Source: Patescibacteria group bacterium
Lineage (GTDB): Bacteria; Patescibacteriota; Microgenomatia; UBA1400; MFAQ01
Direction of reading: 5' to 3'
NCBI GenBank assembly: GCA_943355005.1
Contig: CALRDV010000001.1
Location: 242,059 to 306,058 of the forward strand
Length of the DNA: 64,000 nucleotides
Shown here in pieces: positions 16,727-33,539 of this stretch. Position numbers and translations under genes: made by a program. Numbering within the stretch: position 1 is the stretch's first letter; each line of letters starts with the position of its first letter. Under the pieces are notes generated by a model. The model saw nothing but the letters and a program-made list of their open reading frames with translations. It had not been told where the DNA came from and made no database searches.

Positions 16727-17854
16727 TTATATGCAGTCTGTTCCCAATCCTCCCACACAATTCTCAGTTGGTGGTTTACCACGCTCTGGGCATTTTTCTG
16801 AATAAATACAGGCCCTGTCGGTCACTGCCGAAAGAGTAGTGGGTGAAAGTTTAAAATTGCCGTCACTAAAGCTCAAGGTTATCCTATCTAAGTCTTTAAA
16901 CTCATATTGCCTAAAGTCTGTCGTTTGTTTATTTGCGCCCAAATACCACTCCACATTCGTCGGTAATTCTATCTTCCACGAATCTACGAGTGTCCCAAGT
17001 GTTACACCAGTCTTATGTTTATGAATTACTTCCTCGGTATCTGCATGTGAATGAATATCGGGATCTTTTTCAAAGAACTCAGGTTTAGATTGCAATAGTG
17101 TTTTCTTGCCGTTTATATACAATGCTAAATCGGCATGCTCATGCACTTTATCTCCAACTCCCTCTGCTGCAGGTTTAGGTGCTTTCAGAATCGCGGCCTG
17201 AATGAAAGTTTTAAAGTCCTCGATAGTTTTGGGATTAGGGATTTTTTCGCCATTTAAGAAAAAGGTTGGAGTGCCGTTAACGCCTAATTGTGTACCGGAT
17301 GTTTTATCTCGATTGACTCGTTCACTAACCTCTTTTGATTTTATGTCTTTCTTGTATTGATCCATATTGAGACTAATCTTTTTAGCGTACTCCTCGAAAA
17401 TAGCCGGATCAGGCTGTTGTTTCTCACCCCAAGACTGCTGGTTTTCATAGAGAATATCGTGCATTTCCCAGTATTTTCCTTGCCTACCCGCCGCTTCTAC
17501 AGCAAGGGCAGCAGGTAAACCATTTTTATGTCCTGGGAGAGGAAAATAACGGTTAACAAATCGAACTTCTGTTTTAAATTCATCTGCCAATTGTTTAACT
17601 AGAGGATAATATGCTCGACATGCTTCACATTCAAAATCAAGATATTCAACAAGGGTAACAGTGGCATCTTTATTGCCTTTGATGTAATCATCAGCGACTA
17701 CTTCAAGAAGTTTTTGCTTTTCTTCCGAAACAGGAGTTGTCCCATTGGGATTTGCGGCAGTAGAAGAATCGAATTTACTAAAATAGACAACAGCTACAGC
17801 TATGATTAAAATCGTGATCCCTATGATACTGAGTACAAATTTATCTTTTAACAT
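16727..17854 (-). CDS. DsbA-like thiol:disulfide oxidoreductase (CEAC) with a C-terminal extension
   Basis: A TM anchor and a thioredoxin fold with a CxxC motif (FECEACRAYYP). Confidence 0.6.
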   Translation of the reverse strand: MLKDKFVLSIIGITILIIAVAVVYFSKFDSSTAANPNGTTPVSEEKQKLLEVVADDYIKGNKDATVTLVEYLDFECEACRAYYPLVKQLADEFKTEVRFVNRYFPLPGHKNGLPAALAVEAAGRQGKYWEMHDILYENQQSWGEKQQPDPAIFEEYAKKISLNMDQYKKDIKSKEVSERVNRDKTSGTQLGVNGTPTFFLNGEKIPNPKTIEDFKTFIQAAILKAPKPAAEGVGDKVHEHADLALYINGKKTLLQSKPEFFEKDPDIHSHADTEEVIHKHKTGVTLGTLVDSWKIELPTNVEWYLGANKQTTDFRQYEFKDLDRITLSFSDGNFKLSPTTLSAVTDRACIYSEKCPERGKPPTENCVGGLGTDCI

Positions 17855-18337: not shown

Positions 18338-18871
18338 TTATTCCACTTTGCAGAGAAATGGTTGATTAATTTTTTTCATCGTGTAAATAATAGCCATAAG
18401 TAATATTGCAATGCCAAGAAAACCGAACTCCTGACCTCTAAAAGGCAATATCCCCAGAACTGTAGAGGCAGAACTAAGTCCTATCAGAGAAGTTAGGACA
18501 ACTGAACCACAGGACGCACAACCAACTCCTAGTAAGCTCGTAGCTACACCAAGAAGAGATACTCCCATTTCTCGCTGAACCATGATAGTTTGACGTAAAT
18601 AGTAGATGAGCAAACTGGTTTGAATACCAGTAAGAGTGGCACTGATTATGGTGACCGTTCGGGATAGCGGAGAAAAGTTAGTTTGGATCGATCCCAACAA
18701 ACTAGTTACTAGGTTTGTTTTTTGCCAGACAGTCATGGTTTTGGAGGTCATGGTTTTAGTAATAAGATGAATATTTGGCAACCACGCGGCCAGTGCGATC
18801 ACAGTCAAGGTTACGATTGCTATAACTAGCAAATACTTAGGTTGCTGGATTATTCTAAGTAAAGTTGTCAT
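18338..18871 (-). CDS. Polytopic membrane protein with an intramembrane CASC (CxxC) motif
   Basis: Hydrophobicity profile and a single CxxC motif. Confidence 0.3.
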   Translation of the reverse strand: MTTLLRIIQQPKYLLVIAIVTLTVIALAAWLPNIHLITKTMTSKTMTVWQKTNLVTSLLGSIQTNFSPLSRTVTIISATLTGIQTSLLIYYLRQTIMVQREMGVSLLGVATSLLGVGCASCGSVVLTSLIGLSSASTVLGILPFRGQEFGFLGIAILLMAIIYTMKKINQPFLCKVE

Positions 18872-18874
18872 ATA

Positions 18875-19678
18875 TTACTGGAGAAGAGGATCAATGACAG
18901 CTTGGAAAGCAGCAAATGGTTGTGCTCCAATAAGTAAGTCGCCGTCAATCTTTCCATCACTGGTTGATTTACCGATTAAGAAAGTTGGTGTACCAGATGC
19001 TCCGGCTGCAGAACCATCAGCTATATCTTTCTTCACCTCATCTTCCATCGCTTTGTTGGATAGACAGCTAGTAAATGAGTTTGTATTTAATCCCAAATCA
19101 CTTGCAATAGTTTTGATTTTGGCGTCATCTAGTCCGTTTCCGTTAGATGTGGTTCGCTTAAAGATTTCGCCATGGAATTCAAAGTATTTTTTGTCTCCAC
19201 CTTGTTCTTTAGCACAATTTGCCGCCACCGCTTCCTTTGTGGCCATGGGATCATGAAAGGATAAGGGAAAGTCTCTAAACACTAGCTTGGCTTTACCAGT
19301 GTCGATATATTCCTTGATCAGTTTTGGATAGGTATCAGTAAAATGACGCTTACAGAAAGGACATTCATAATCTGAAAATTCAATAATGGTGATTGGAGCG
19401 TTTTTATCACCTAATATAGGATCATCATCGATACTAGCGACACCTTTAGTTGGTTGTTGTGGTTGCGCGGGAGCTGCTTTCGCCTGATCATTGGTGGGAG
19501 CTTGAGCTCCTGCGGTAACACCGCCCTCTTCTAACAATTTAACTTTAGTGGTAAGTGAACCAAGGAAGAAAGATCCAATAATTAGTAAAATTACGAGAAC
19601 TGGTGTGAGAATGGGATTGAATTTATTTTCTGTCATATTACTACAAAGTGTAGTAGATATTAAGACAGTCGTCAACAC
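18875..19678 (-). CDS. DsbA-family thioredoxin (CPFC)
   Basis: A TM anchor, YECPFCKRHF and a DsbA-like fold. Confidence 0.7.
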   Translation of the reverse strand: MLTTVLISTTLCSNMTENKFNPILTPVLVILLIIGSFFLGSLTTKVKLLEEGGVTAGAQAPTNDQAKAAPAQPQQPTKGVASIDDDPILGDKNAPITIIEFSDYECPFCKRHFTDTYPKLIKEYIDTGKAKLVFRDFPLSFHDPMATKEAVAANCAKEQGGDKKYFEFHGEIFKRTTSNGNGLDDAKIKTIASDLGLNTNSFTSCLSNKAMEDEVKKDIADGSAAGASGTPTFLIGKSTSDGKIDGDLLIGAQPFAAFQAVIDPLLQ

Positions 19679-19690
19679 TATCTAACTACA

Positions 19691-20683
19691 TCAATATTGG
19701 GAACTAAAATTTCTGAGAGATTGTTTCGACATGTGGCTTTGCATATCTAAGAGAGCCCTCTGACGGCACACTAGGGCGCAATTGTCGCTATTATCAGCAC
19801 ATAGCACAACTGCGTCACCACCTGATTCATGAAGCTCTATCGCTTTGACTGGAGTGACCATCAAGCCTACGAGAATTAGAAGCGAAATAATACTCAAGCT
19901 TAAATTTTTATAACCGATTTTATTGTAGGTAGTCTTCTGTGAATAAAGTGATTGAATCCTAGCTTCAAGGCTATCTTCAGAAATAATATCAGGGATAAAA
20001 GCAAAGTGTGGCATCGGTTCATATCTTAAAAGTTTTTTTAAGACCTCTCCGATCGACTTATTTTCACTCATTCCATATACCGCTTCAGAATCCGCATGGA
20101 TTTCCCTACCGGTACGATAAACTCTGACAAAATCTGAGATAACTGGGAAAAATGGAAATAATGATTCAATCATGCTGGCTATAAAAAGGGTTAATGAGTC
20201 TCTATGCTCCAAATGAGACTTTTCATGCCTAAGTATTACCTCAAGCTCATTCATACTCATGAGTTCAATCATCCCTGTTGATACATAAATCTTGGGGCTC
20301 GTGATGCCAAAGCAGAAAGCTTGAGGCTTATTTTGATTAATAACCGATACATGGTTAGTTAGCCCAACTTTATCCAAAAGATCCGCAAGACCTTCGTATT
20401 TATTTACCGCCTGCTTTTTAAGTCTTAGTTTAAGAGAATATATTGCGATGATAGTTTTGAGTATTTTAAACAGAGTAAATAATGCTCCAAAGAAGAGGAC
20501 TCCAACAATTATTTTTCCCAAATCACCAGGGAGATGTAGATTCAACGCATTAACCATTTCTTGACAATAATAGATACTGTGGTGAATCAGTATTTGAAAG
20601 TATTTAAATACGACAAAAAAATAACTTATCATCAAAAACGATAATAGACCGACAAAGCCTATCAAGTAATTATTTATTTTCAT
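19691..20683 (-). CDS. M56-family (BlaR1/MecR1-like) membrane metalloprotease. It lacks the penicillin-binding sensor domain and has a Cys-rich C-terminus.
   Basis: HEKSHLEHRD (HExxH), four TM segments and a C-terminal C-x6-C-x3-C motif. It overlaps the blaI-like gene. Confidence 0.7.
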   Translation of the reverse strand: MKINNYLIGFVGLLSFLMISYFFVVFKYFQILIHHSIYYCQEMVNALNLHLPGDLGKIIVGVLFFGALFTLFKILKTIIAIYSLKLRLKKQAVNKYEGLADLLDKVGLTNHVSVINQNKPQAFCFGITSPKIYVSTGMIELMSMNELEVILRHEKSHLEHRDSLTLFIASMIESLFPFFPVISDFVRVYRTGREIHADSEAVYGMSENKSIGEVLKKLLRYEPMPHFAFIPDIISEDSLEARIQSLYSQKTTYNKIGYKNLSLSIISLLILVGLMVTPVKAIELHESGGDAVVLCADNSDNCALVCRQRALLDMQSHMSKQSLRNFSSQY

Positions 20684-21125
20684 TATGTTTCTCCAAGAGT
20701 TCTAAAAAGTATTTTTTCTTTTCTTTGGGCAGCTCTTCAATTGATTCAGCAAATGAAGCGATCGCTGTATCTCCAAATGACTGAAAAAACTTATTAAAGA
20801 AGGAGCCAGCTATTGATTTGCTGTAATCCTCTTTAGAAATTTTTGGCGAGTAAAGAATGGCAAAGTCTTTATCGTTTCTTTTGAGTAAACCCTTCTCTTG
20901 AAGTCTTGAAAGTACGGTTGCAACGGTTGTGTATGCTAATTCTTTTGTTTCAGATATCTTTTTTAGTACATCACGGACTGAACATGAGTCGTTATCCCAA
21001 ACGATGTTCATTACTTCTTGTTCGAGTTCGCTCAAAGCTTTTATCTTCATATGTCTACTACAGATTGTAGAGACTACCATGAAACATATCAATAGATATT
21101 TGATAGCAGAGATTAATATCAACAA
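20670..21125 (-). CDS. BlaI/MecI/CopY-family transcriptional repressor. The likely true start is the ATG at 21050 (MKIKALSELEQ...).
   Basis: A winged-helix N-terminus typical of the penicillinase-repressor/CopY family. It is immediately upstream of the M56 gene. Confidence 0.75.
   Translation of the reverse strand: MLILISAIKYLLICFMVVSTICSRHMKIKALSELEQEVMNIVWDNDSCSVRDVLKKISETKELAYTTVATVLSRLQEKGLLKRNDKDFAILYSPKISKEDYSKSIAGSFFNKFFQSFGDTAIASFAESIEELPKEKKKYFLELLEKHNENK
21054..21077. promoter_or_regulatory. TACA/TGTA-type dyad (CTACA-GAT-TGTAG overlapping GTAG-AGA-CTAC), a putative BlaI/CopY-type operator
   Basis: Perfect palindromes read directly. They lie 4-27 nt upstream of the probable blaI/copY start. 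Confidence 0.45.
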
Positions 21126-21196: not shown

Positions 21197-24100
21197 TTAT
21201 TTTGCTTCGCTAATTTTGAATCCTTCTTTAACAAAGTGGTAGTTATCAGCCACTGAGTTAGATTTTGCCAAGACTCCTGAAATGATCACGTCATTCCCGA
21301 AGAATCCGGAAATAGTGTCGCCTTCTTTGGTGAAAAGCTTTTCCTTCATCATCAATTGGGCTTCATCGTAGCCGATATACACTGGTGTGTATTTCTTGCC
21401 ACCAATATAGACAGTATTAAATCCATCGCTTGGGAGTTTACTAGCTAACTCCTTGGAGGAGGTGCCGTTGATCATATAAAACTGCTTTTCCATGCCTTCC
21501 GCAGTTTTGGCTAGGACTACGTTTTTATCGACCTGTACTTGACCGGTCTTTTCCTTATTTTCCATATTTGTAGGTGCGGCCATAGTAGAGCTGAACCTGG
21601 CAAACTCGATAAACAAGAAAGTGAACGCTATCATCATGACAGCTGGTGCAAACATTGAGATATAGTTCTTCTTTCCTGGCTTGTAACGGCGCAAGAGTAG
21701 TGAATTCCCTACAACTGACACAGAACTTAAAGCCATGGCAAGGCCTGCAAGCTCTGGCTTTAATACCAATCCGACGAACGAGAATATGCGTGCGGCAATT
21801 GGAATTCCGATGACGTTATAGAAGAGCGCAAAGAACATGTTTTGCTGTATCTTCTGTACGGTCGTTTTGGAAAGTTCCAATGCGTGCACAACATCCCGGA
21901 GATCATTTTTGATAATCACGATGCCACCAGTTTCCATGGCCACATCCGTGCCAGATCCCATGGCAATACCCAAATCAGCTTGAGCAAGTGCGGGTGCATC
22001 ATTAATACCATCTCCAACCATTGCTACTTTCTTACCAGCATCTTGAAGTTTTTTGACTTCATTAGCTTTGTCCTGAGGCAATACCTCTGCCAGAATGTTT
22101 GTTATGCCAACCTGAGAGGCAATGGCTTTGGCAGTTTTTGTATTGTCACCAGTAATCATCCAGACCTCGATACCCATTTTGGTAAGCATTTCAACGGCTT
22201 CTCGAGAAGTCTCCTTGACGGTATCGGCTACTCCAATGAATCCAAGAACTCCCTTTTTGGTCGCCAGAATCATGGCAGTTTTACCTTGTTCTTCCAGACG
22301 AGTGAGCTTTCGGTCGAATTTGGCTATGTCTAAGCCCAACGTATCAGTAATGAGCTTACGGTTGCCAAAGAAATACTCAACTTTTCCAATCGTTCCTTTT
22401 ACACCATGCCCTGGAATGGCTGAGAATTTATCCACTTCTTTGAGAACAACCCCTTCTTCCTGTGCATAAGAATATATGGCTTCAGCTAGTGGATGTTCAG
22501 ATTGCTTTTCGAGACTAGCCGAAATCATGAGCACTTCTTCCTCGTCAAGTTCCCCTAAGTCCTCTACATCCGTCACTTCGGGCTTGCCCTTGGTGATCGT
22601 GCCTGTTTTATCAAAAACAATAGTATTGATCTTGCTGGCACTCTCAAGAGGCTCTCCACCTTTGATGAGGATCCCATGCTCAGCACCAACCCCAGTACCT
22701 ACCATAATGGCCGTAGGGGTAGCTAGACCAAGCGCACACGGGCAAGCAATAACAATCACGGCAGTGAATGCCATAAGGGCAAATGAGAGTGGTGCCCCCA
22801 AGAAGAAGTACCAGACCACAAATGTGAGCGCAGCTATCGCGATAACGCCTGGTACAAAGTATGCAGAAATACGATCTGCTACTGCCTGAATAGGTGCTTT
22901 AGACCCCTGCGCATCCTCAACGAGGCGAATGATCTGGGATAAAGTGGTTTCCGATCCAATACGGGTTGCCATAAACTCGAAGCTACCTACTTTATTAATA
23001 GTTCCGCCGATAACCATATCATCAACATGTTTTTCAACCGGCATACTTTCTCCCGTGATCATTGATTCATCGACTGAGGAGGAACCTTTCATAATTACGC
23101 CGTCTACTGGAACCTTTTCTCCGGGACGAACCACAATAATGTCATTTTTCACAACCTGATCAGTTGGGATATCTAGAGTTTCACCATTTCGTATTACTCT
23201 GGCAGTTTTTGCCTGAAGTCCCATGAGTTTTTTAATTGCCTCACCAGTTCTTCCTTTTGCTTTTGCCTCGAGATATTTACCCAAGATGACAAAGGTGATT
23301 AAGAACGCTGCTGTTTCAAAATATAGCTCTGGAATCTTCGCTCCAGCCAATCCAATAAGAGAATTGGTGGTCGCGTAGTACTGAATAAAATTGACAGCAC
23401 TGTAAAAATACGCCACTGATGTACCTATGGCTATCAGGCTATCCATGTTAAAGGTACGCATCTTTAGAGCTGAAATCATACCTTTATAGAAGCTCGAGCC
23501 GGTAATAAATTGAACCGGAGTAGCTAAAATAAACGACACTATGCCTATATAAGGAAGAAGTGTTTTACCACCAGGCAAGAAACTAAAGAAATCAAGGAAC
23601 ATGAAATATATCATTGGGAAAGATAAGATCAGGGCAAACAAGAACTTTTTCCATTGCCCTTTGATTTCTGATAATTGACGCTTGGCTTGAGCTTGTGAAT
23701 CTTCTGAGCTGGCTAGCATTCCCTTATATCCAGCTTTTTCCACTGCTTTTATTAGATCATCAGTTTTTGCTGATCCAGTGTTATAGAGAATCGAAGCTTT
23801 TTCTGAGGCAAAATTAACTTTTGCTTCTGCAACTCCCGGAACTTTCTTTAATTGACGTTCGATAATAGATGCACACGATGAGCAGTGCATGCCTGAAATA
23901 ACTAGGCTAGTCCGTTCTGTTTTACCTGTTAGGGCAACTTGTGATACAACGCCTTCAGATGTTATGGATTGTCCAGATTCTGTTCTTTGTGCTGATCCGA
24001 AACGCAAGATTCCTTTAATTGTCCAGTGTCCATCCTCGTCTTGGCCTACTTTACCGTCAATTTCAATTTCTGGAGGAAGTGTAAATAATGGCGTTGCTTG

Positions 24101-24340
24101 CTGTGCAAGGTTCATGCCTGTTTTTCCCACGATGAGACTCTGATACCCGGCACTTTTTACCGCGTCTATAATCGCCTGATCGGTTACCTGGCCATTGGTA
24201 GTGATAATTGTTGCTTTTCCAGCTTTGTGATCGACACTCACATCTTTGATCCCCGGAAGGGAAATAAGTTCGTCTTTAATCAGCATTTCGCATGATTGGC
24301 AGTGCATTCCTTTAATATCTAAGTTGATTGTTCTTTTCAT
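21197..24340 (-). CDS. copA: Cu(I)-translocating P1B-1 ATPase CopA with two N-terminal HMA domains, plus an extra C-terminal TM helix and a C-terminal domain of about 150 aa
   Basis: GMHCQSCE and [25 protein letters not shown] and [10 protein letters not shown]. After the canonical last TM there is another hydrophobic helix ([23 protein letters not shown]) and then a Met-containing soluble domain. Confidence 0.9.
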
Positions 24341-24352
24341 ATGTTTTTTGTT

Positions 24353-24556
24353 TTAAATGGTTTTATATGGTGTATCTTTCAATACGTTATTAATTTCTTG
24401 GGCAGAAATTTCTCGATTTGCCTCGATTGCTACCAGTCCGGTTTCAATCGTAGTTTCAACATTTGTAACGCCATCCAGCCCTCCTATTCTTTTTTCAGTA
24501 ATTTTTTTACAGGCTGGGCAGGTAAGGCCTGATAATTTAATGGTTTGTTTTTTCAT
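24353..24556 (-). CDS. copZ: Copper chaperone CopZ (HMA domain)
   Basis: GLTCPACKKITE; 67 aa. Confidence 0.8.
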   Translation of the reverse strand: MKKQTIKLSGLTCPACKKITEKRIGGLDGVTNVETTIETGLVAIEANREISAQEINNVLKDTPYKTI

Positions 24557-24567
24557 AATTTCCTCCT

Positions 24568-26382
24568 TTAAATAACTTGTATTTGACCTCTTTGCATCCC
24601 CATACCACAGGTAATGTTGTATGTTCCTTTACTCGTTGGGGTAAATTCAAAGACTACTTTTTCTCCTTTGGTTAATATTTCAATCTTTTGAGTGAGCGTG
24701 GGTACCGTAATGCTTCCCATGCACCCCTGACCATCTTCCTTGGCATCAATTTCAAATCGTACAGGTTGGTTTGCCTTGACGGTAAAGGTGTTTGGCTGGA
24801 TGTCACTGCTTGCGGTGTATGTCGTTTTGATAAGTTGGACATTTCCTTGGTTGACCGTTTCGCCCGCAGGTAAATTGTTATTTTGTGCAATAACCTGCTT
24901 TTTGGCACCGCAACCACACCCTCCGCCACTAGCACTGCACGAACCCGCCGCCTGTGTATTTTGTGTTTGTGTCGTACTGGCTATTTGGGTGGTAGATGGG
25001 GCACTGCCAGTTTCATCAACTACTGTGAACGATCCGGTATACATCCCCATGAGACATGAGAAACGAATGGTGCCTGTTTCTTTGGGAGTGAACTCAAAGA
25101 CATTTTCTCCGAGCTCTAAGCTTTTACGAATACCAAGCTGTTGGGAAACAATGCTGCTGGCACAGGAATAGATATCCTTTGATGTTACTATCCATTTAAC
25201 GGGAATACCTTTTTTAATCGTGAATTTATTCGGTGAATAGCCAGATGATGCTTGAGTCATACGGACAACTTGCACCCCATTTACCATAGTGACATTTGGA
25301 TCAGACTTTGCAGTCGCCTTTGAAGTAACTGCACCAAGTACCTGTGGAACACCCAGGAGATTTAATCCATTTCCGACATTAAAAAATGCAAGCATAATGA
25401 CGACCACTCCAGCTGTTTTGAAGAATAATCTCGCGCCATTTCCCTTGACGACTGATGTTAATCCGCCAACTCCCAAGAGACCAGGTGCTGTACCGAGGGC
25501 AAACACACCCATCGTTAAAGCTCCTTGTATGGGACTACCAGTACTCATAGCAAAGAGTTGCATTGCTTGGGTAAAGCCACAGGGGAGAAAGAAAGTAGTA
25601 GCTCCCATGATAGCTGCGTTTTTATTGCTATATTCAAGTTGCGTTTTCTCAGCAATACCAAGCATCCTGGATAATCCCTTGGGAAGAGTAAAGGATACTT
25701 TTTTCAAGATAGGAAAGATGTCGATTAACTGGCCTCCAAGAAGAAGCATAACTAATCCAACGGCTACCGTTAATAAACCAAGAACTGACGTGGATAATTG
25801 AAAGAATGATCCGGCTAACCCGATAACGCCACCAAGAATGGTATATGAAATGATTCTTCCAAGATTGAAAAACAAATGCGGCTTGAACTTTTCCATACCT
25901 GTTGCATTGGGGAATTGCTCAGAAAACCGAGATGAGGCACCAAGAACTAAGCCTCCAACGAGCGCCATACACGTAGAGACGCCAGCAGTTAAACCGACCA
26001 AGAAAACAATGGGAAGGCTAGAGTAACTACCTGAGATCGACTTACTTAGATCGAAAAGTCCGACGGATTTTGCAATTAGAAATAATGCAGTGGTGATAAA
26101 GAAAGCTATACCGACATCAATGTAGTCTCTGTGATTGCGGGAAAAGAAATGAATTTTGCCGTCTTCGCCAATCGTATAACCAGCTTTTTCAATAGCTTGC
26201 TTAACTTCGTTACCATCTAACTCACAGTCGCAGTTCACATCAGCAATTCCTGTTTTATGATTCACATAAACAGACTGGACGCCACGAACTTTTTTAAGTT
26301 CATCTTCAATTAATATCTCGCATGATCGGCAATGCATTCCTTTGATTTGGATTTTTTGTTTGCTCATTGTTAGAGCATACAA
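24568..26382 (-). CDS. Fusion protein: N-terminal HMA domain, DsbD_2/TauE-like polytopic membrane domain, and two C-terminal cupredoxin-like beta-sandwich repeats (C...C-x-MGM motif)
   Basis: GMHCRSCE; a multi-TM core with an intramembrane PCG motif; two about 75-aa repeats ending in FSCLMGMYTG and ITCGMGMQRG. The probable start is the ATG at 26367. Confidence 0.6.
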   Translation of the reverse strand: MYALTMSKQKIQIKGMHCRSCEILIEDELKKVRGVQSVYVNHKTGIADVNCDCELDGNEVKQAIEKAGYTIGEDGKIHFFSRNHRDYIDVGIAFFITTALFLIAKSVGLFDLSKSISGSYSSLPIVFLVGLTAGVSTCMALVGGLVLGASSRFSEQFPNATGMEKFKPHLFFNLGRIISYTILGGVIGLAGSFFQLSTSVLGLLTVAVGLVMLLLGGQLIDIFPILKKVSFTLPKGLSRMLGIAEKTQLEYSNKNAAIMGATTFFLPCGFTQAMQLFAMSTGSPIQGALTMGVFALGTAPGLLGVGGLTSVVKGNGARLFFKTAGVVVIMLAFFNVGNGLNLLGVPQVLGAVTSKATAKSDPNVTMVNGVQVVRMTQASSGYSPNKFTIKKGIPVKWIVTSKDIYSCASSIVSQQLGIRKSLELGENVFEFTPKETGTIRFSCLMGMYTGSFTVVDETGSAPSTTQIASTTQTQNTQAAGSCSASGGGCGCGAKKQVIAQNNNLPAGETVNQGNVQLIKTTYTASSDIQPNTFTVKANQPVRFEIDAKEDGQGCMGSITVPTLTQKIEILTKGEKVVFEFTPTSKGTYNITCGMGMQRGQIQVI

Positions 26383-26431: not shown

Positions 26432-28675
26432 TCAGACAGTTATCAAGTCTTTTTCAGCTCGTTTCAGGAGTACTGCGTTTGTAGCCACGATAATTGAAGA
26501 AATACTCATAAGAAGCGCGGAAAATTCTGGGCGTAAAGTGATACCATAGCGTGGATAGAGTACCCCAGCAGCGATTGGGATTGCCAAGATATTGTAAATA
26601 CTTGCCCAGACTAGGTTTTCCTTCATTTTTCTGACTGTGGCTTTAGAAAGTCGGATTGCTCGTAATATATCGGCAGGATCTGATTTCATGAGGACCACCT
26701 TGGCCGTTTCTATGGCTACATCGGTTCCTGCACCAATTGCAATCCCAATATCGGCCTGAGCCAAAGCTGGGGCATCATTTACCCCGTCGCCAACCATGGC
26801 AGTAAATTTACCCTCTGATTGGAGTTTCTTTACATACGAGGCTTTGTCTTCCGGTAATACTTCAGCAAAAATTCTATCTATACCCAGTTCTTTCCCAATC
26901 GCTTCAGCAGTTTTTTTATTGTCTCCGGTAATCATGGCAACTTCGAGTCCCATTTCCTTCATGCGGGTAACAGCTATTTTGGCGTTTGCCTTAATTGGAT
27001 CAGAGGCAGCGGCGACACCTGCGATTTTTTTATCTACTGCAAGTATCATGATCGTTTTTCCTTCTGAGAGCAGGCGGTCAATATCAGTTTGTAAGGTTGT
27101 CGTGTCTACTTTCCAGTCATTCATGAGCCTTGTTGTACCAACAAGCACATGTTTGCCATTTACTATAGCCTCAACGCCATGACCGGCAAGGTTATTGAAT
27201 TTTTCTACCTTTGATGGAACAACAATCTTTCTTCGCTTCGCTTCCTCAAGGATAGCCATGCTTAATGGGTGAGAAGATTTGGCCTCAGCAGCACTGTCCA
27301 GCTCAATTATTTGATCCTCTGTGAAGCCTTTGGCTGCCACTACGTCGGTTATGCGAGGCTTTCCTTCGGTGAGTGTGCCGGTTTTATCCAGTACTACCGA
27401 TTGTATCTTTGATACCTGTTCAAGAGTTGGTGCATCTTTGATGAGAATGTTATGTTTCGCACCAAGTCCCGTACCTACAGCTACCGCAGTTGGGGTGGCC
27501 AACCCAAGCGCATCTGGGCAAGCAATGACGACGGTCGAGATTGCAAAAGTAAGTGCTAATAGGAGAGGTTGCCCAAGTACAAAAAACCAGACGGTAAAAG
27601 TCAAGAGTCCACCACCAACAGCCACAATTACTAAATACTTTGCAAACTGATCAGCAATTTTTTGTCCGGGGGCTTTGGAGTTTTGAGCGGTTTCTACCAT
27701 CTTCACAATTTGGGCGAGCGCTGTATCTTCTCCAACCTTAGTCGCCTTAAACTTTACAGAACCCGAGGTGTTAATTGATCCGCCAATGACAGAATCTCCA
27801 ATCGACTTGGAAACAGGTAGCGATTCGCCTGTGACGAGCGATTCGTCGATGGCAGTCTCTCCCTCGATAATCTCACCATCAACAGGCACTTTATCACCAG
27901 GTTTTAAGATCAATATGTCACCAAGCACAATACTCGCTGTTGGAACCATTGATTCCACTCCATTTTTCCATAATCTGGCTTGCGGGGGAACAAGGTTAAA
28001 TAAGGCCTGAAGTGCATCGGTGGTGCCACGACGTGACTTCATTTCCATCCAATGGCCAAAGAGGACGAAAGTGATAAGCATCGCAGCAGCTTCATAATAT
28101 GAGTCACTACTTCCAAGGAGCGTTAAAACAACACTAAATCCGTAGGCAGCCGTAATACCCACAGCGATAAGAACCGACATGCCGAGGCGAAGCGTCTTGA
28201 GCTCAAAATAGGATGAATATAAGAATAACCAACCGCTATAGAAGAATACTGGCGTGGTAAGAATAAAAAGTAACCAAGGAATAGGTAGCGGGGATGGTAA
28301 ATTCCAGCCAAACATCGTTCGACCCATTGAATAAGCAAGAATTGGGATCGTAAGAAGTAGTGCGAAGAAGAATTTGTTTCTGATATCTTCTTCCATCAGT
28401 TTCGCCATTTCTCGTCCGGCGAGTCCCGTATGATCCATACCCATGGTCATAGTCATACTCATTTTGAGTTTTTCCCAAATGGACATCTCGGACGTTAGTT
28501 TCATCGTATGAGCTTTATGTTCCGAATGACCCATCTCTTCATGGTTCATTTCAACAGGAACGAGCGTCATGCCACACTTGGGACACTTCCCTGGCTTTTC
28601 TTTCCTGATTTCTGGATGCATCGTGCAGGTATACATGGTCATTTCCATAGGTTTCATACTTACTTCATTATGCAT
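26432..28675 (-). CDS. P1B-type Cu/Ag ATPase with an N-terminal HMBD (C-x-MHPE...GKCPKCGM) and a Met-rich segment. It has an unusual CPD transmembrane motif.
   Basis: [44 protein letters not shown] (verified in DNA), DKTGTLT and GDGVNDAPAL. Confidence 0.85.
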   Translation of the reverse strand: MHNEVSMKPMEMTMYTCTMHPEIRKEKPGKCPKCGMTLVPVEMNHEEMGHSEHKAHTMKLTSEMSIWEKLKMSMTMTMGMDHTGLAGREMAKLMEEDIRNKFFFALLLTIPILAYSMGRTMFGWNLPSPLPIPWLLFILTTPVFFYSGWLFLYSSYFELKTLRLGMSVLIAVGITAAYGFSVVLTLLGSSDSYYEAAAMLITFVLFGHWMEMKSRRGTTDALQALFNLVPPQARLWKNGVESMVPTASIVLGDILILKPGDKVPVDGEIIEGETAIDESLVTGESLPVSKSIGDSVIGGSINTSGSVKFKATKVGEDTALAQIVKMVETAQNSKAPGQKIADQFAKYLVIVAVGGGLLTFTVWFFVLGQPLLLALTFAISTVVIACPDALGLATPTAVAVGTGLGAKHNILIKDAPTLEQVSKIQSVVLDKTGTLTEGKPRITDVVAAKGFTEDQIIELDSAAEAKSSHPLSMAILEEAKRRKIVVPSKVEKFNNLAGHGVEAIVNGKHVLVGTTRLMNDWKVDTTTLQTDIDRLLSEGKTIMILAVDKKIAGVAAASDPIKANAKIAVTRMKEMGLEVAMITGDNKKTAEAIGKELGIDRIFAEVLPEDKASYVKKLQSEGKFTAMVGDGVNDAPALAQADIGIAIGAGTDVAIETAKVVLMKSDPADILRAIRLSKATVRKMKENLVWASIYNILAIPIAAGVLYPRYGITLRPEFSALLMSISSIIVATNAVLLKRAEKDLITV

Positions 28676-30048: not shown

Positions 30049-30696
30049 TTATTTATTCCAATTGGCAAGCCATGATCTCATCATTTCTATTTCACGAGTT
30101 TGAGCAGTGACAATATCGTCTGCTAGTTTTTTCATTTCAGGACGAGTCGTGCCATCCTTTAACATGCTTGCCATCATCACGGCCATTTGATGGTGTGGAA
30201 TCATGTCTTCAACAAAAGCGCGGTCAAAATCTTGAGCATCTTCTAGTCGTGTTGCGTCTGAGTCGTTGCCCATCATTCCCATATGCATGGAGGACGTGCT
30301 ACCCATCATGCCGTGCTGGTTCATGACTGCTCTGCCTGTAGGTAGGTCTTTCCCAAACCAAGATTTGTACCAAGATTTCATCTGGTCGATTTCTTTGCCT
30401 TGAGAATCAATTATGTTCTCTGCCAGCTGTTTTACTTCCGGAGTCTTAGCCTTTGTTTGAGCGAGCTTAGCCATGGTAATGGCATCCTCGTGATGAGGGA
30501 TCATTTGCTCGATAAAGTGGGCGTCAAGCTGGGAAGATTGCGTATTATTTGACTGATTAAAAGAAGAGAATCCCATCATTCGCATCATGCCGTAATTATT
30601 TGACCGGACACCTGAAGATATACTCAACCAGACCAGTACACCGCCGATAATCACACCTACAAATCCATACGTTATGTTATTATTTTTCATGTTCAC
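30049..30696 (-). CDS. DUF305 metal-resistance protein (second paralog)
   Basis: MIPHHEDAI and MIPHHQMAV repeats and an N-terminal anchor. Confidence 0.75.
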
Positions 30697-30767
30697 CCTC
30701 CTTAAGTTTCCAGATATAACAAGTCTTATCCCATCATACTACACGGGAGGAAATATGTTTCAAAGAG

Positions 30768-31157
30768 CTATTTAACAATGAGCGTGCCATTACCCATATT
30801 ATTTGCACAGTGCATCCTAAATTGTCCTGGTTTATCTGCAATAAATTCCAGCACATTACTTTCCGGGGTTATGTCTTTGCTTAATTCATAACCATCAATA
30901 ATAAGTCTACCCATGGATCCGGTGAGTGTGTTTGAATCTGCTTCGATTCTCACTTTTGTACCTAATTTTACCTTGACTGTTTTTGGTGTGTAATCGCCGT
31001 TTTGTAGGCTGGACAGTTTAATAGTTGTTAATTCATCTGTTTGAACAACATTATTTTGAGTATCTGTTTTCAGGTCAACTGGACTTGTCTGTTTCCATAT
31101 AATGAAGCCGGAAATAATTAGTACTACTACGATGATGAGCGGTTTATTTATTTTCAT
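30768..31157 (-). CDS. Secreted or anchored cupredoxin-like single-domain protein (RMHCANNMGNG)
   Basis: A signal anchor and a beta-sandwich homologous to the C-terminal repeats of the protein at 24568-26382. Confidence 0.5.
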   Translation of the reverse strand: MKINKPLIIVVVLIISGFIIWKQTSPVDLKTDTQNNVVQTDELTTIKLSSLQNGDYTPKTVKVKLGTKVRIEADSNTLTGSMGRLIIDGYELSKDITPESNVLEFIADKPGQFRMHCANNMGNGTLIVK

Positions 31158-31181
31158 ATAATTAATTTTACCGATTTAGTT

Positions 31182-31201
31182 ATTAAGAATTTATGAAGAT
31201 A
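31182..31201. promoter_or_regulatory. Island motif copy 2: ATTAAGAATTTATGAAGATA, upstream of the cupredoxin-like gene
   Basis: 18/20 match to the consensus. Confidence 0.55.
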
Positions 31202-31204
31202 GAG

Positions 31205-31432
31205 CTAGTGCTTATGTCCGCCATTTCGCATCATTAATATATGCATGAGTGGGCATGCTAGTATTGCTCCAAAGTACACCACATTTGTTAGTGGTACTGC
31301 GAATACTTTAACTGCTATTAATATCACCACAGCTACTCCTAGGCATATAAGCAGCCATTTTGTCTTTTTTTGAGTATTCTCATTGGTTGAATGATCCATT
31401 TTTGAATGATCCATATCTAACCTCCTTACCAT
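31205..31432 (-). CDS. DUF2933-like small membrane protein (ACPLMHILMMRNGGHKH)
   Basis: One TM segment and the C-terminal CPLMH..MM..GH motif typical of metal-island DUF2933 proteins. Confidence 0.5.
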   Translation of the reverse strand: MVRRLDMDHSKMDHSTNENTQKKTKWLLICLGVAVVILIAVKVFAVPLTNVVYFGAILACPLMHILMMRNGGHKH

Positions 31433-31449
31433 GATTATAGAAAAGACCA

Positions 31450-31469
31450 GATTAAGAAAGTATGAAGAT
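31450..31469. promoter_or_regulatory. Island motif copy 3: ATTAAGAAAGTATGAAGATT, upstream of the DUF2933 gene
   Basis: 17/20 match. Confidence 0.55.
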
Positions 31470-32929
31470 TAGGACTTGGCTTTCAGAGGAAGCGATATGG
31501 TGACGTGTGTTCCCTTACCGACTTTGCTTGCTATTGAAATAGTGCCACCGTGGGACTCTATGATTCCTTGAGCAATTGCGAGTCCAAGACCTGAGCCAAG
31601 TGTTTTAGCAGTTTTTGACCCACGATAGAAACGGTCGAATATATGGGGTAGGTCTTTTTCTAGAATGCCATTGCCTGAATCAATAACTTCAACCACCGCC
31701 TCACTGTTTTTGGTACGCAGAAAAATAGAAATTGTCTCATTCTTCGGCGTATATTTCACTGCGTTATCGAGGATATTAAGAATTGCGCGGGAAAGTTTGT
31801 CTTCTGATCCGGTAACCTGAATGCCTTCGGCAATATGACTTTTGACCGTGATATGTTTTTGAGCGGCTAGTTTGACGGCAATATCTTTCAGTTCCACAAG
31901 TACAGCCGTAAGATCAGTTTGTTGATTCGTACTTATTGCCTTGTCGGCGCCGATCCACGCTAAATCGAGAATGTTTCTGATCGTAGTAGACAATCGATTG
32001 ACATCGATAAGTGTTTCTCCAAACGCATTTTTATATTCCTCATTCGTGCGTTTTTTTGACAACGCTAACTCAATTTCTCCTTTTAACGTAGCTACTGGTG
32101 TTTTCAGTTCATGGGCAACGTCACCGATAAATTGACGTTCTCTTTTAAAAGATTCGTGAAGTCTTTGGAGTAATTCGTTAAACGTTACTGCAAGTTCTGA
32201 CACTTCATCTTCGGTATTGGGAACAGCTACGTGTCGATTCAAATCTTGGCTAGTAATTGATTGGAGGTCTGAAGATATCTTCTGAATCGGTTGTAAGGCG
32301 CTTTTTGCCAGTAAATAGCTCCCGATTATTGCAGGGATTGCGATAAGGAGATAAACCGCGGTCAGAGTCAAAATCAGGCTTTTGAAGGAGTCGTAGATTG
32401 CATCAACCGGATCACCCATAAAAATAAGACCGTTCGATTCACCATTTTGTATTATGGGGAATACGCCAATCCGGAGTGTTGTTGTGCCAATACGGCGTTC
32501 TACAAAGGTAGGTTTTATGATATTACTGGACTTTTCAATAAGGTCTTTAAGTATAGTATTTTCGTCCGCTCCGACTTGAGAACTGCCCGTAATTTTCCCG
32601 GATTTGTCGGTAATAAGGACGAGCATTCCCGGCATTTCCATAAATTGCTGACTAATAATTCCTTGGTTAAAAACTCCTTGAGCCATGCTCGGCTGTTCAT
32701 CTCCCACCATCTTCGTTAGCGTTTCTGCATGGGCAATGATCGAACGGTCTGTTTGGTTAAGAAGTGTCTGCTTGGTGATGTAGAAAAATACGGCAAAAAC
32801 AATAGCTGTACTGACAAAGAAAGCAATTGAATACCAAAGTGTTAGACGAAATCGGATTGATTTTTTATTCATGTTATCCAATCTTATACCCCACGCCGTG
32901 AACGGTCTGGATAAGCTTAACCTTTGCAC
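31469..32929 (-). CDS. Sensor histidine kinase (two TM segments, periplasmic domain, HAMP, HisKA, HATPase_c). The likely start is at 32872.
   Basis: H-box VAHELKTP and G1/G2 boxes (DSGNGI, GSGLGLAIA). Confidence 0.85.
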   Translation of the reverse strand: MQRLSLSRPFTAWGIRLDNMNKKSIRFRLTLWYSIAFFVSTAIVFAVFFYITKQTLLNQTDRSIIAHAETLTKMVGDEQPSMAQGVFNQGIISQQFMEMPGMLVLITDKSGKITGSSQVGADENTILKDLIEKSSNIIKPTFVERRIGTTTLRIGVFPIIQNGESNGLIFMGDPVDAIYDSFKSLILTLTAVYLLIAIPAIIGSYLLAKSALQPIQKISSDLQSITSQDLNRHVAVPNTEDEVSELAVTFNELLQRLHESFKRERQFIGDVAHELKTPVATLKGEIELALSKKRTNEEYKNAFGETLIDVNRLSTTIRNILDLAWIGADKAISTNQQTDLTAVLVELKDIAVKLAAQKHITVKSHIAEGIQVTGSEDKLSRAILNILDNAVKYTPKNETISIFLRTKNSEAVVEVIDSGNGILEKDLPHIFDRFYRGSKTAKTLGSGLGLAIAQGIIESHGGTISIASKVGKGTHVTISLPLKAKS

Positions 32930-33539
32930 CGGTATCTACTTTTTTCCTGAGAGTGCCGACAAACACATCAACCACGTTACTCATACCATCAAAATTGTAA
33001 TCCCAGACATGCTCGATAATCATCGTACGTGATACGACTTCTCCCTTATGGCGCATAAGGAGCTCAAGAACCGCAAATTCTTTCGGGGTGAGGGTGATAG
33101 CCTTATTCGCTCTTTGCACACTGTGTTTTAGTGGATCGAGAATAAGATCATTTTCAGACAAAATCGGTGATATATCCTGATGACTGCGGCGAATGAGGGC
33201 GTGTACTCGTGAGCGAAACTCAACGAAAGAGAATGGCTTGGTTATATAGTCGTCAGCACCGCTATCAAGTCCGGCGACTTTATCTTCTAATGTAGATTTA
33301 GCGGTGAGCATAAGCACAGGGGTCTTAATACTCTTTTTACGCAGTTCTTTACACACTTGTAGACCGTCAAGTTTGGGAAGCATGATATCGAGCACAATAA
33401 GGTCGTACTGCTCACTTTCGGCCAAATATTGACCTTCTTCACCGTCAAATGCTTGATCAACAGCAAAGCCGTCCTCGATAAAACCCTTTTTGATGATATT
33501 GGAGAGACGACGTTCGTCTTCGACAATTAAGACTCTCAT
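32874..33539 (-). CDS. OmpR-family response regulator (REC domain plus winged helix)
   Basis: MRVLIVEDE...DIMLPKLDG...; C-terminal trans_reg_C domain. Confidence 0.9.
   Translation of the reverse strand: MRVLIVEDERRLSNIIKKGFIEDGFAVDQAFDGEEGQYLAESEQYDLIVLDIMLPKLDGLQVCKELRKKSIKTPVLMLTAKSTLEDKVAGLDSGADDYITKPFSFVEFRSRVHALIRRSHQDISPILSENDLILDPLKHSVQRANKAITLTPKEFAVLELLMRHKGEVVSRTMIIEHVWDYNFDGMSNVVDVFVGTLRKKVDTGAKVKLIQTVHGVGYKIG

Follow-up and report, generated by a model that had tools for sequence, protein, structure and literature searches.

In membrane proteins of the CcdA/DsbD type, a core of 3+3 transmembrane (TM) helices starts and ends outside the cell and carries one cysteine each in its first and fourth helix, and in the MerP/MerT/NmerA mercury system an external metal-binding domain, membrane cysteines, and a cytoplasmic HMA domain are combined. 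For copper, a set of sulfur ligands is known from the pneumococcal protein CupA, where Cys74 and Cys111 form a high-affinity S1 site and Cys74, Met113, and Met115 form an S2 site (PMC7558416, PMC5646241). The four-ligand motif is the criterion for a true CupA and is absent from other PF13473 "CupA homologs" (PMC5552934), and reviews describe CupA as confined to a few streptococci. HMA and DsbD_2 domains are joined in the COG2836 proteins (HMA+DsbD_2+DUF2318) of gut Firmicutes, which are predicted members of CsoR copper regulons (PMC4938975). Here we analyzed a gene that fuses an HMA domain, a DsbD_2 core, and two cupredoxin-like domains, located at positions 24568–26382 (minus strand) of a 64,000-nucleotide stretch of DNA from a Patescibacteria group bacterium (GenBank assembly GCA_943355005.1, contig CALRDV010000001.1, positions 242,059 to 306,058), hereafter called the window. 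The gene, referred to as the fusion gene, belongs to a large, unnamed, Patescibacteria-centred family. Each of its domains is a member of a known family, while their arrangement is unstudied and the compartment predicted for the CupA-type sites is unexpected.

Domains, topology, and family of the fusion protein

An earlier note, made from the DNA letters and their translations, had described the reading frame at 24568–26382 as encoding HMA, DsbD_2, and two cupredoxin-like domains. The coordinates are right, and all Pfam matches were well above thresholds: HMA at residues 11–70 (E = 1.8e-13, 51.1 bits against a gathering score of 24.8), DsbD_2 (PF13386) at residues 126–332 (E = 1e-33, 117–119 bits against 24.9, model positions 2–197 of 199; E = 2.3e-34 when the core was scanned alone), and Cupredoxin_1 (PF13473) in two stretches (E = 7.8e-23, 81 bits against 27). 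The motifs quoted in the note, GMHCRSCE, PCG (as LPCG), SCASS...FSCLMGMYTG, and GCMGS...ITCGMGMQRG, were each found in the protein, while the repeats, given there as about 75 residues, are about 95 residues long. A Filamin match of 22 bits, under the cut-off of 26.9, reflects a generic beta-sandwich resemblance, and matches to NosZ, SoxA, and nitrosocyanin, far under their cut-offs, a generic cupredoxin resemblance. AlphaFold2 modelled the full protein with a predicted local distance difference test score (pLDDT) of 87.6 and a predicted template modelling score of 0.73. The ATG at 26367 is probably the true start codon, since homologues align from residue 6 and members of the 99%-identity cluster are called at 599 residues on many independent contigs. 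The numbering of the 604-residue open reading frame is nevertheless used throughout. The features of the gene and of its two downstream neighbors are as follows.

24568–26382, minus strand: open reading frame of the fusion gene, 604 residues from a TTG at 26382
24568–26367, minus strand: fusion gene with ATG start (MSKQK..., 599 residues), the ATG lying 15 nt inside the listed reading frame
26167–26364, minus strand: HMA (CopZ-like) domain, residues 7–72, motif GMHC18RSC21
26065–26133, minus strand: extra N-terminal TM helix, residues 84–106, ahead of the six-helix core (hydropathy and AlphaFold2)
25354–26016, minus strand: DsbD_2 (PF13386) core of six TM helices (3+3), residues 123–343 (Pfam; AlphaFold2 model of the core with pLDDT 86)
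25969–25971, minus strand: codon of the invariant Cys138, in G-x-S-T-C-M-A-L-V-G-G at the break of TM2
25579–25581, minus strand: codon of the invariant Cys268, in F-F-L-P-C-G-F-T-Q(-A-M-Q) at the break of TM5
25015–25299, minus strand: predicted CupA-type domain 1, residues 362–456, ligand equivalents C407, C443, M445, and M447
24910–24939, minus strand: tri-Cys motif C482-x6-C489-x-C491 (SCSASGGGCGCG; S-C-x6-G-C-G-C-G) in the linker between the repeats
24571–24861, minus strand: predicted CupA-type domain 2, residues 508–604, ligand equivalents C554, C592, M594, and M596
24353–24556, minus strand: copZ, 67 residues, HMA domain with LTCPAC, 11 nt after the stop codon of the fusion gene and with an AGGAGG ribosome-binding site
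21197–24340, minus strand: copA, a CPC-type P1B-1 Cu(I) ATPase with two HMA domains, 12 nt after copZ

Judged from alignments and structure models, the two C-terminal repeats are CupA-type, putatively binuclear Cu(I) domains; CupA-type domains are a characterised family. Searches of PDB sequences with phmmer matched repeat 1 to the N-terminal metal-binding domain (MBD) of Streptococcus pneumoniae CopA (4F2F, E = 3.3e-12) and to CupA (2MRY/4F2E, E = 9.5e-12), and aligned repeat 2 with CupA (E = 3.2e-6) with the ligands in register; the repeats are 40% identical to each other (E = 3e-15). Both pairwise and five-way alignments place Cys74, Cys111, Met113, and Met115 of CupA exactly on the ligand equivalents of both repeats. 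According to Foldseek, the model superposes on Cu(I)-CupA (4F2E) with a TM-score of 0.87 and a root-mean-square deviation (rmsd) of 1.2 Å over 93 columns, and on the CopA MBD (4F2F) with a TM-score of 0.84 and an rmsd of 1.4 Å, the identity to CupA and the CopA MBD being 32–35%; repeat 2 was modelled with pLDDT 86–97. Conservation was assessed over 135 diverse homologues with 29–59% identity to the fusion protein. C407 is present in 135/135, C443 in 132/133, M445 in 129/133, and M447 in 109/133 of these, so that the external Cys/Met positions pointed out in the earlier note are invariant or nearly so. Assignment to the classical blue-copper, CuA, or nitrosocyanin cupredoxins was rejected, as the ligand set is Cys2Met2 without His and the family profiles stayed under threshold. 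Foldseek also matched the full model to nitrite reductases and laccases of the two-domain type (rmsd 15–19 Å), which reflects no more than the presence of two cupredoxin-like domains. In the functional sense the protein is not a CupA, as it differs from CupA in both location and partner (see below).

The 37-residue linker between the repeats (residues 460–496) is predicted to be disordered (pLDDT below 50), and its sequence is variable apart from the cysteines, of which there are exactly three in 111 of the 116 two-repeat homologues. The flexible tether thus bears a conserved cluster of thiols.

At the opposite end of the protein, C18 and C21 of the HMA domain are invariant (135/135). PDB sequences matched by this domain are HMA domains of ATP7B, CopA, and CopZ, and AlphaFold2 predicts the corresponding E-H-E-E-H (beta-alpha-beta-beta-alpha) order of elements with pLDDT above 90. 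The NCBIfam models for MerTP and the MerA N-terminus match this domain of the protein only, and identity with MerT/MerTP was rejected on the grounds that the NF033556 match is limited to model positions 119–185, which cover its HMA portion (40.9 bits, far short of the cut-off of 180). Hydropathy and the AlphaFold2 model agree on seven TM helices, namely the extra helix and six in the DsbD_2 core. Lys/Arg residues number 3+6+2 in the loops assigned to the inside and 1+0+0 in those assigned to the outside; the family means are 11.1 and 1.1, respectively, and the inside value exceeds the outside value in 135/135 homologues. Based on the extra TM helix and the positive-inside rule, the HMA domain is predicted to be cytoplasmic and the CupA-type domains extracytoplasmic, which agrees with the N-in/C-out placement proposed in the earlier note. 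The reversed topology (HMA outside, CupA-type domains inside) was rejected on the strength of the same rule.

The membrane core contains two invariant cysteines, C138 and C268, and TM2 and TM5 are broken exactly at these residues in both AlphaFold2 models (full protein and core alone). C268 belongs to the intramembrane PCG motif that had already been noticed, with P267 in 134/135 and G269 in 132/135 homologues, whereas C138 and the extra TM helix are additions to what was then described. The polar residues S136, R176, T271, Q272, Q275, and T298 are also invariant or nearly so. Neither a profile search against the PDB nor Foldseek (best E = 0.31) gave a solved-structure relative of the core. 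PF02683 (DsbD_TM) did not match the core at E ≤ 10; it does, however, pass its threshold in a sister sub-clade from the candidate phyla radiation (CPR) with the same three domains (E = 6.5e-10, 39.1 bits against 27.1), and several close homologues bear PF02683 in precomputed annotation. The sister sub-clade has His-Cys-x-x-Met-Cys-Gly-Gly in TM2 and Pro-Cys-Gly-Pro in TM5.

The top 120 database matches (56–99% identity), from NCBI, JGI, ENA, and Logan assemblies, all contain the same three Pfam domains, and the one name in use among them is "sulfite exporter TauE/SafE family protein". By the evidence of the profiles this name is wrong: a TauE/SafE (PF01925) identity lacks profile support, the scan of the core at E ≤ 10 giving DsbD_2 only. 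Searched exhaustively with phmmer, a set of 1.84 billion representatives at 50% identity gave 1,171 proteins at E ≤ 1e-30, and when one genome per species was scanned, the family was found in at least 599 species genomes, almost all of them from Patescibacteria. The best 80 of these genomes, which were used for a survey of loci, represent Microgenomates, Parcubacteria, WWE3, Berkelbacteria, Gracilibacteria, and Saccharibacteria, and include one complete chromosome (CP006914). The commonest form of the family has about 450 residues and one C-terminal domain, while the two-repeat form of about 600 residues analyzed here is found in approximately half of the 80 loci. Twenty-one near-identical cluster members sit on independent contigs. 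Many TPA_asm records of metagenome-assembled genomes (survey loci L001, L002, L004, L007, L011, L012, and others) are titled "uncultured Gammaproteobacteria", "Pseudomonadales", or "Bdellovibrionales"; their operon is of the CPR type and 55–77% identical to that of named Patescibacteria, and the titles look like mislabels.

The copZ and copA genes and the possible cargo

The fusion gene was proposed earlier to be co-operonic with copZ and copA, and in the window the three genes do lie on the same strand with gaps of 11 and 12 nt. A CPC-type copA on the same strand, at most 1.5 kb downstream of the fusion gene, was found in 60 of the 66 loci whose downstream sequence was long enough; a further three were borderline cases, and one locus has copA directly upstream instead. 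In 26 of the 60, the two genes are separated by a copZ gene of its own. The fusion gene is thus the conserved first gene of a unit that continues with copZ, where present, and copA, and by all appearances the three genes are co-transcribed. One Parcubacteria locus (L018, 11828–14199) contains a second copy of the fusion gene, with a single repeat and 36% identity, and behind it another copA; as both are directly 3′ of the first unit with copZ and copA, the whole module is tandemly duplicated.

The conserved sulfur sites of the protein form an unbroken series, from the CxxC motif of the HMA domain through the TM Cys pair, the S1/S2 sites of the first CupA-type domain, and the three linker cysteines to the S1/S2 sites of the second. 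The earlier note saw in this arrangement a trans-membrane relay for metal or reducing equivalents. The anatomy fits, since both halves of the CcdA-like core have an invariant Cys and there are sulfur sites on either face of the membrane, whereas the nature of the cargo is not decided by the sequence. Our tentative reading, which we consider to fall slightly short of an even chance, is a transmembrane thiolate relay for Cu(I) that works with CopZ and CopA. The fused HMA domain would take Cu(I) from CopZ, and the ion would move by ligand exchange onto the two intramembrane cysteines, where it could be held as a bis-thiolate while the core alternates access. The external CupA-type sites would then receive it, first at the high-affinity bis-thiolate S1 and then at the Met-rich S2, with the linker cysteines as a possible swinging arm, and from there Cu(I) might be released, oxidised, or kept away from the membrane. 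The protein would in that case serve alongside CopA as an auxiliary exporter that needs no ATP, or as a "transmembrane metallochaperone"; export may be driven by the proton gradient, as in other metal exporters of the LysE/DsbD superfamily, and the external sites may also accept Cu(I) leaving CopA.

We prefer Cu(I) as the cargo for several reasons. Domains with copper-type ligands are placed on both membrane faces. Only the handling of metal gives a purpose to the invariant HMA domain and the neighboring copZ, an HMA domain being of no obvious use to a pure electron relay, and conservation extends to the Met ligands of S2, not to the Cys pair alone. The His/Cys/Met variant of TM2 in the sister sub-clade looks like a metal site, and with the PCGP of TM5 it offers more ligands than a redox pair needs. 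Furthermore, the superfamily to which the DsbD family belongs consists mostly of efflux carriers for metals and amino acids, and copper and mercury resistance are listed among the roles of the family itself (PMC4608589). The conservation of the tri-Cys linker and the frequent position of copA directly 3′ of the fusion gene (60 of 66 loci, with copZ between in 26) count in the same direction, as does the independent prediction of COG2836 proteins as CsoR-regulon members (PMC4938975). Several points weigh against this reading. The nearest characterised relatives of the core (CcdA, DsbD, and ScsB) carry electrons, and their Cys positions and N-out/C-out core topology match those observed here. 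In a passive relay, Cu(I) would follow its gradient, which is directed inward under copper stress, so that energy coupling or an external sink would be required. CopA already provides copper export, and the DsbA-like genes found within 6 kb of the fusion gene in 15 of the 80 loci point to thiol redox chemistry on the outer face. The more far-reaching proposal, that the family is the first of a new class of ATP-independent copper transporters, in which a DsbD-fold core carries Cu(I) instead of electrons from a cytoplasmic HMA domain to external CupA-type sites, and that it is the main partner of CopA across CPR, is conceivable but more doubtful.

Electrons as the cargo, with the protein acting as a reductant conduit similar to ScsB or CcdA, are a serious though rather unlikely alternative. 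The core cysteines would shuttle electrons to C407/C443, C554/C592, and the linker cysteines from the cytoplasm and, in oxidising surroundings that contain DsbA, keep them reduced for Cu(I) binding or restore them once they have reduced Cu(II); in a variant, the external cysteines could be a catalytic site at the cell surface that reduces Cu(II) to Cu(I), or a trap, with the HMA domain as a copper-sensing gate or an accessory redox CxxC. The core is a member of the DsbD clan (PF13386), PF02683 passes its threshold in the sister sub-clade, and the cysteines lie at helix breaks of the first and fourth core helix in an N-out/C-out core, as in CcdA/DsbD. CupA reduces Cu(II) in vitro via Cys74/Cys111, and the source of electrons for its re-reduction is not established (PMC5646241), while in Salmonella the copper protein CueP, which is periplasmic and contains Cys, functions together with the DsbD-type ScsB and the ScsB partner ScsC (PMC10907172). 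The DsbA-like genes, which are present in the window as well, and a bis-thiolate pair that is conserved more strictly than the second Met are also consistent with electron transfer. This explanation, however, does not account for the HMA domain, which is fused and invariant, or for the neighboring copZ, as thioredoxin is the direct electron donor of CcdA and DsbD. Metal binding is indicated by the Met ligands and by the TM2 variant rich in His and Cys, there is no thioredoxin-fold domain fused to the protein, and no thioredoxin gene was noticed beside it in the loci examined, although no systematic search for one was made. Transfer of Cu(I) and transfer of reductant are not mutually exclusive.

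We consider it improbable that copper moves in the opposite direction, in the manner of MerP/MerT/NmerA or of reductive uptake, such that the external domains capture and perhaps reduce copper and pass it via the Cys pair and the HMA domain to CopZ, either for acquisition or to clear the surface for ATP-driven expulsion. The layout does copy the mercury path, from an external metal-binding domain over membrane cysteines to a cytoplasmic HMA domain, and inward is the direction in which a passive thiolate relay would flow under copper excess. The uptake partners of ILT/FTR1 proteins are external and of cupredoxin type, as in Fet3/Ftr1 and EfeUO, and ILT/FTR1 is an uptake family of the LysE superfamily. 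This latter relationship is documented (PMC4608589). Against import, the cluster is of the resistance type, with copZ and genes for two Cu ATPases, a two-component system, a DUF305 protein resembling CopM, and a CopY/BlaI-like repressor; importing copper only to pump it out would be futile, and there is no homology to MerT. CPR bacteria are, moreover, generally thought to have few copper enzymes.

Equally, there is little chance that no transmembrane transfer takes place, the core being an anchor or an unrelated permease, the external domains and linker a buffer for surface Cu(I) like CopM, CueP, and CusF, perhaps fed by CopA, and the HMA domain a docking site for CopZ/CopA or a regulator. External copper-binding proteins are indeed common in resistance clusters, and the present cluster also encodes a DUF305 protein and a free cupredoxin-like protein. 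A single helix would, however, suffice as an anchor, as in CupA, and the retention of both intramembrane cysteines and the polar motif (S/T-C, P-C-G-F-T-Q..Q, and R176) in 135/135 or nearly all homologues is not expected of one. Finally, an assembly chimera, named in the earlier note as a possible artefact, or a read-through fusion of separate genes can safely be dismissed, as the same architecture recurs in thousands of proteins from several assembly sources, including the top 120 matches, 1,171 50%-identity clusters, at least 599 species genomes, and 21 independent contigs.

Other genes of the cluster

The fusion gene is part of a co-directional run of about 17 kb, which starts with a response regulator and a histidine kinase followed by genes for DUF2933, a 129-residue cupredoxin-like protein, DUF305, ICMT-like, and bPH_2 proteins, and a second P1B ATPase. 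The fusion gene, copZ, and copA come next, and the run continues with a BlaI/CopY-type repressor, an M56 peptidase, a DsbA-like protein, a small CxxC membrane protein, and a second DsbA-like protein. The upstream neighbors of the fusion gene in the window are not conserved across loci. The following features were assigned.

30049–33539, minus strand: DUF305 protein (215 residues, with an MHMGMMG stretch), DUF2933 protein (75 residues, ending CPLMHILMMRNGGHKH), and histidine kinase/response regulator pair
30768–31157, minus strand: membrane-anchored cupredoxin-like protein, 129 residues, Cupredoxin_1 (Pfam, E = 7.3e-9), N-terminal hydrophobic anchor
26432–28675, minus strand: second P1B ATPase, HMBD (PF19335) and a Met/His-rich N-terminus, directly upstream of the fusion gene
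19691–21125, minus strand: BlaI/CopY-type repressor (Penicillinase_R, E = 2e-27) overlapping a BlaR1-like M56/M48 membrane peptidase, just 3′ of copA
18875–19678 and 16727–17854, minus strand: two DsbA-like genes (Thioredoxin_4/DSBA), flanking the gene for a 177-residue membrane protein
18338–18871, minus strand: polytopic membrane protein of 177 residues with a G-C-A-S-C-G motif, no Pfam match

The 129-residue protein had been regarded as a free-standing third copy of the C-terminal repeat. It is indeed a Cupredoxin_1 protein with an anchor, but a relative rather than a third copy, as it has a site of its own and belongs to a rare, separate family. It shares 27% identity with repeat 2 (E = 1.5e-6), gave no significant BLAST match to repeat 1, and matched CupA at E = 0.006. 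Only the equivalents of Cys111 and Met115 are retained, with Ser/Gly/Pro at the position of Cys74 and Asn at that of Met113. Its family gave 38 matches in 5.8 billion sequences, in which M82, C117, and N119 are invariant and M121 is present in at least 90%; this pattern suggests a different, probably mononuclear Met/Cys/Met site, unlike those of CupA, type-1 copper, or CuA. A role as conserved partner of the fusion protein was rejected, as tblastn matches elsewhere fell mostly inside the C-terminal domain of the fusion protein itself. DUF305, encoded nearby, is the domain of CopM, a copper protein of cyanobacteria. The reading frames of the histidine kinase and response regulator overlap by 56 nt, and homologues of this pair were found directly upstream of the fusion gene in approximately 10 of 71 loci.

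Close homologues of the second P1B ATPase were found upstream of the fusion gene in only six of 71 loci. Its metal site in TM4 is Cys-Pro-Asp (VVIACPDALGLATP) in place of the usual CPC or CPH, and since 10 of 11 close homologues from other CPR loci, with 60% identity or more across the motif region, likewise have CPD, it is not a sequencing error. To our knowledge, no CPD subtype of P1B ATPases has been described. CopA itself has an extension at residues ~905–1047, consisting of an additional hydrophobic helix past the canonical last TM helix and a Cys-free C-terminal domain of about 120 residues, which has no Pfam match and by topology would lie outside the cell. The extension was observed in 20 of the 80 loci, 11 of which have a second, separately encoded copy just 3′ of copA.

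DsbA-like genes (15 of 80 loci, as given above) are located immediately upstream of the fusion gene and on the same strand in at least five loci (L010, L014, L015, L024, and L045). The 177-residue membrane protein may be a membrane redox partner of the DsbA-like proteins that flank it in the window, and its homologues accompany DsbA-like genes in four other loci. The pair of repressor and M56/M48 peptidase recurs beside the fusion gene in five of the 80 loci. No CopY operator ("cop box", TACAnnTGTA) was found near the cluster, and the one match in the whole window, at 59676, is unrelated and at chance level. Scans of 16–34 kb for sigma-70 promoters and terminators gave counts equal to those of shuffled sequence and were uninformative.

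Comparison with known systems

A literature search gave no published description of the architecture reported here. The nearest are the COG2836 proteins, which are uncharacterised and have an HMA domain fused to DsbD_2 in the same way, with DUF2318 in place of the CupA-type domains. CupA-type sites have been reviewed as streptococcal and intracellular, whereas the present family has the same ligand set in more than 1,000 clusters of ultra-small CPR bacteria, apparently outside the cell. As the most constant partner of copA in CPR, the fusion protein is probably central to how these bacteria cope with copper. As it combines in a single polypeptide a cytoplasmic copper chaperone domain, a CcdA-like two-Cys core, and putative Cu(I) sites on the outside, it is a natural system for asking whether a DsbD fold can move metal, and it is also suited to asking how external copper-binding thiols stay reduced.

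The predicted CupA-type domains share with pneumococcal CupA and the CopA MBD a cupredoxin-like fold, four Cu(I) ligands, a tether to the membrane, and a place in a cop operon beside copA. CupA has a single N-terminal TM anchor, whereas the repeats of the fusion protein are C-terminal to a region of seven TM helices; in addition, the domain is duplicated and a tri-Cys linker has been added. The cytoplasmic face is where CupA and the MBD of CopA work (PMC7558416), while the CupA-type domains described here are predicted to be outside and would therefore be unable to feed the cytoplasmic entry of CopA. The CopA of the window has two HMA domains and no cupredoxin MBD, and the cupredoxin–cupredoxin pairing of chaperone and pump known from pneumococci is thus missing.

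CcdA, DsbD-beta, and ScsB (PF02683) have the same core of six TM helices (3+3), with one Cys in each half and the same orientation, and DsbD likewise hands on to a beta-sandwich domain with a Cys pair. The Scs system, moreover, has been linked to copper tolerance (PMC10907172). The fusion protein differs in matching PF13386, in having Pro-Cys in TM5 only, in its extra N-terminal TM helix and cytoplasmic HMA domain, and in that its external partner is a putative Cu(I)-type site with no thioredoxin fold. It is thus not demonstrably a CcdA. With MerP–MerT–NmerA and MerTP it shares the thiol chain from an external domain over membrane cysteines to a cytoplasmic HMA domain, but the external domain is cupredoxin-like, its Met ligands being of the kind typical for sites of Cu(I)/Ag(I), and the genetic context is cop and not mer. 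Compared with CopZ and the HMA domains of P1B ATPases, the N-terminus is a standard MxCxxC HMA domain, but one that is fused to a membrane protein other than an ATPase.

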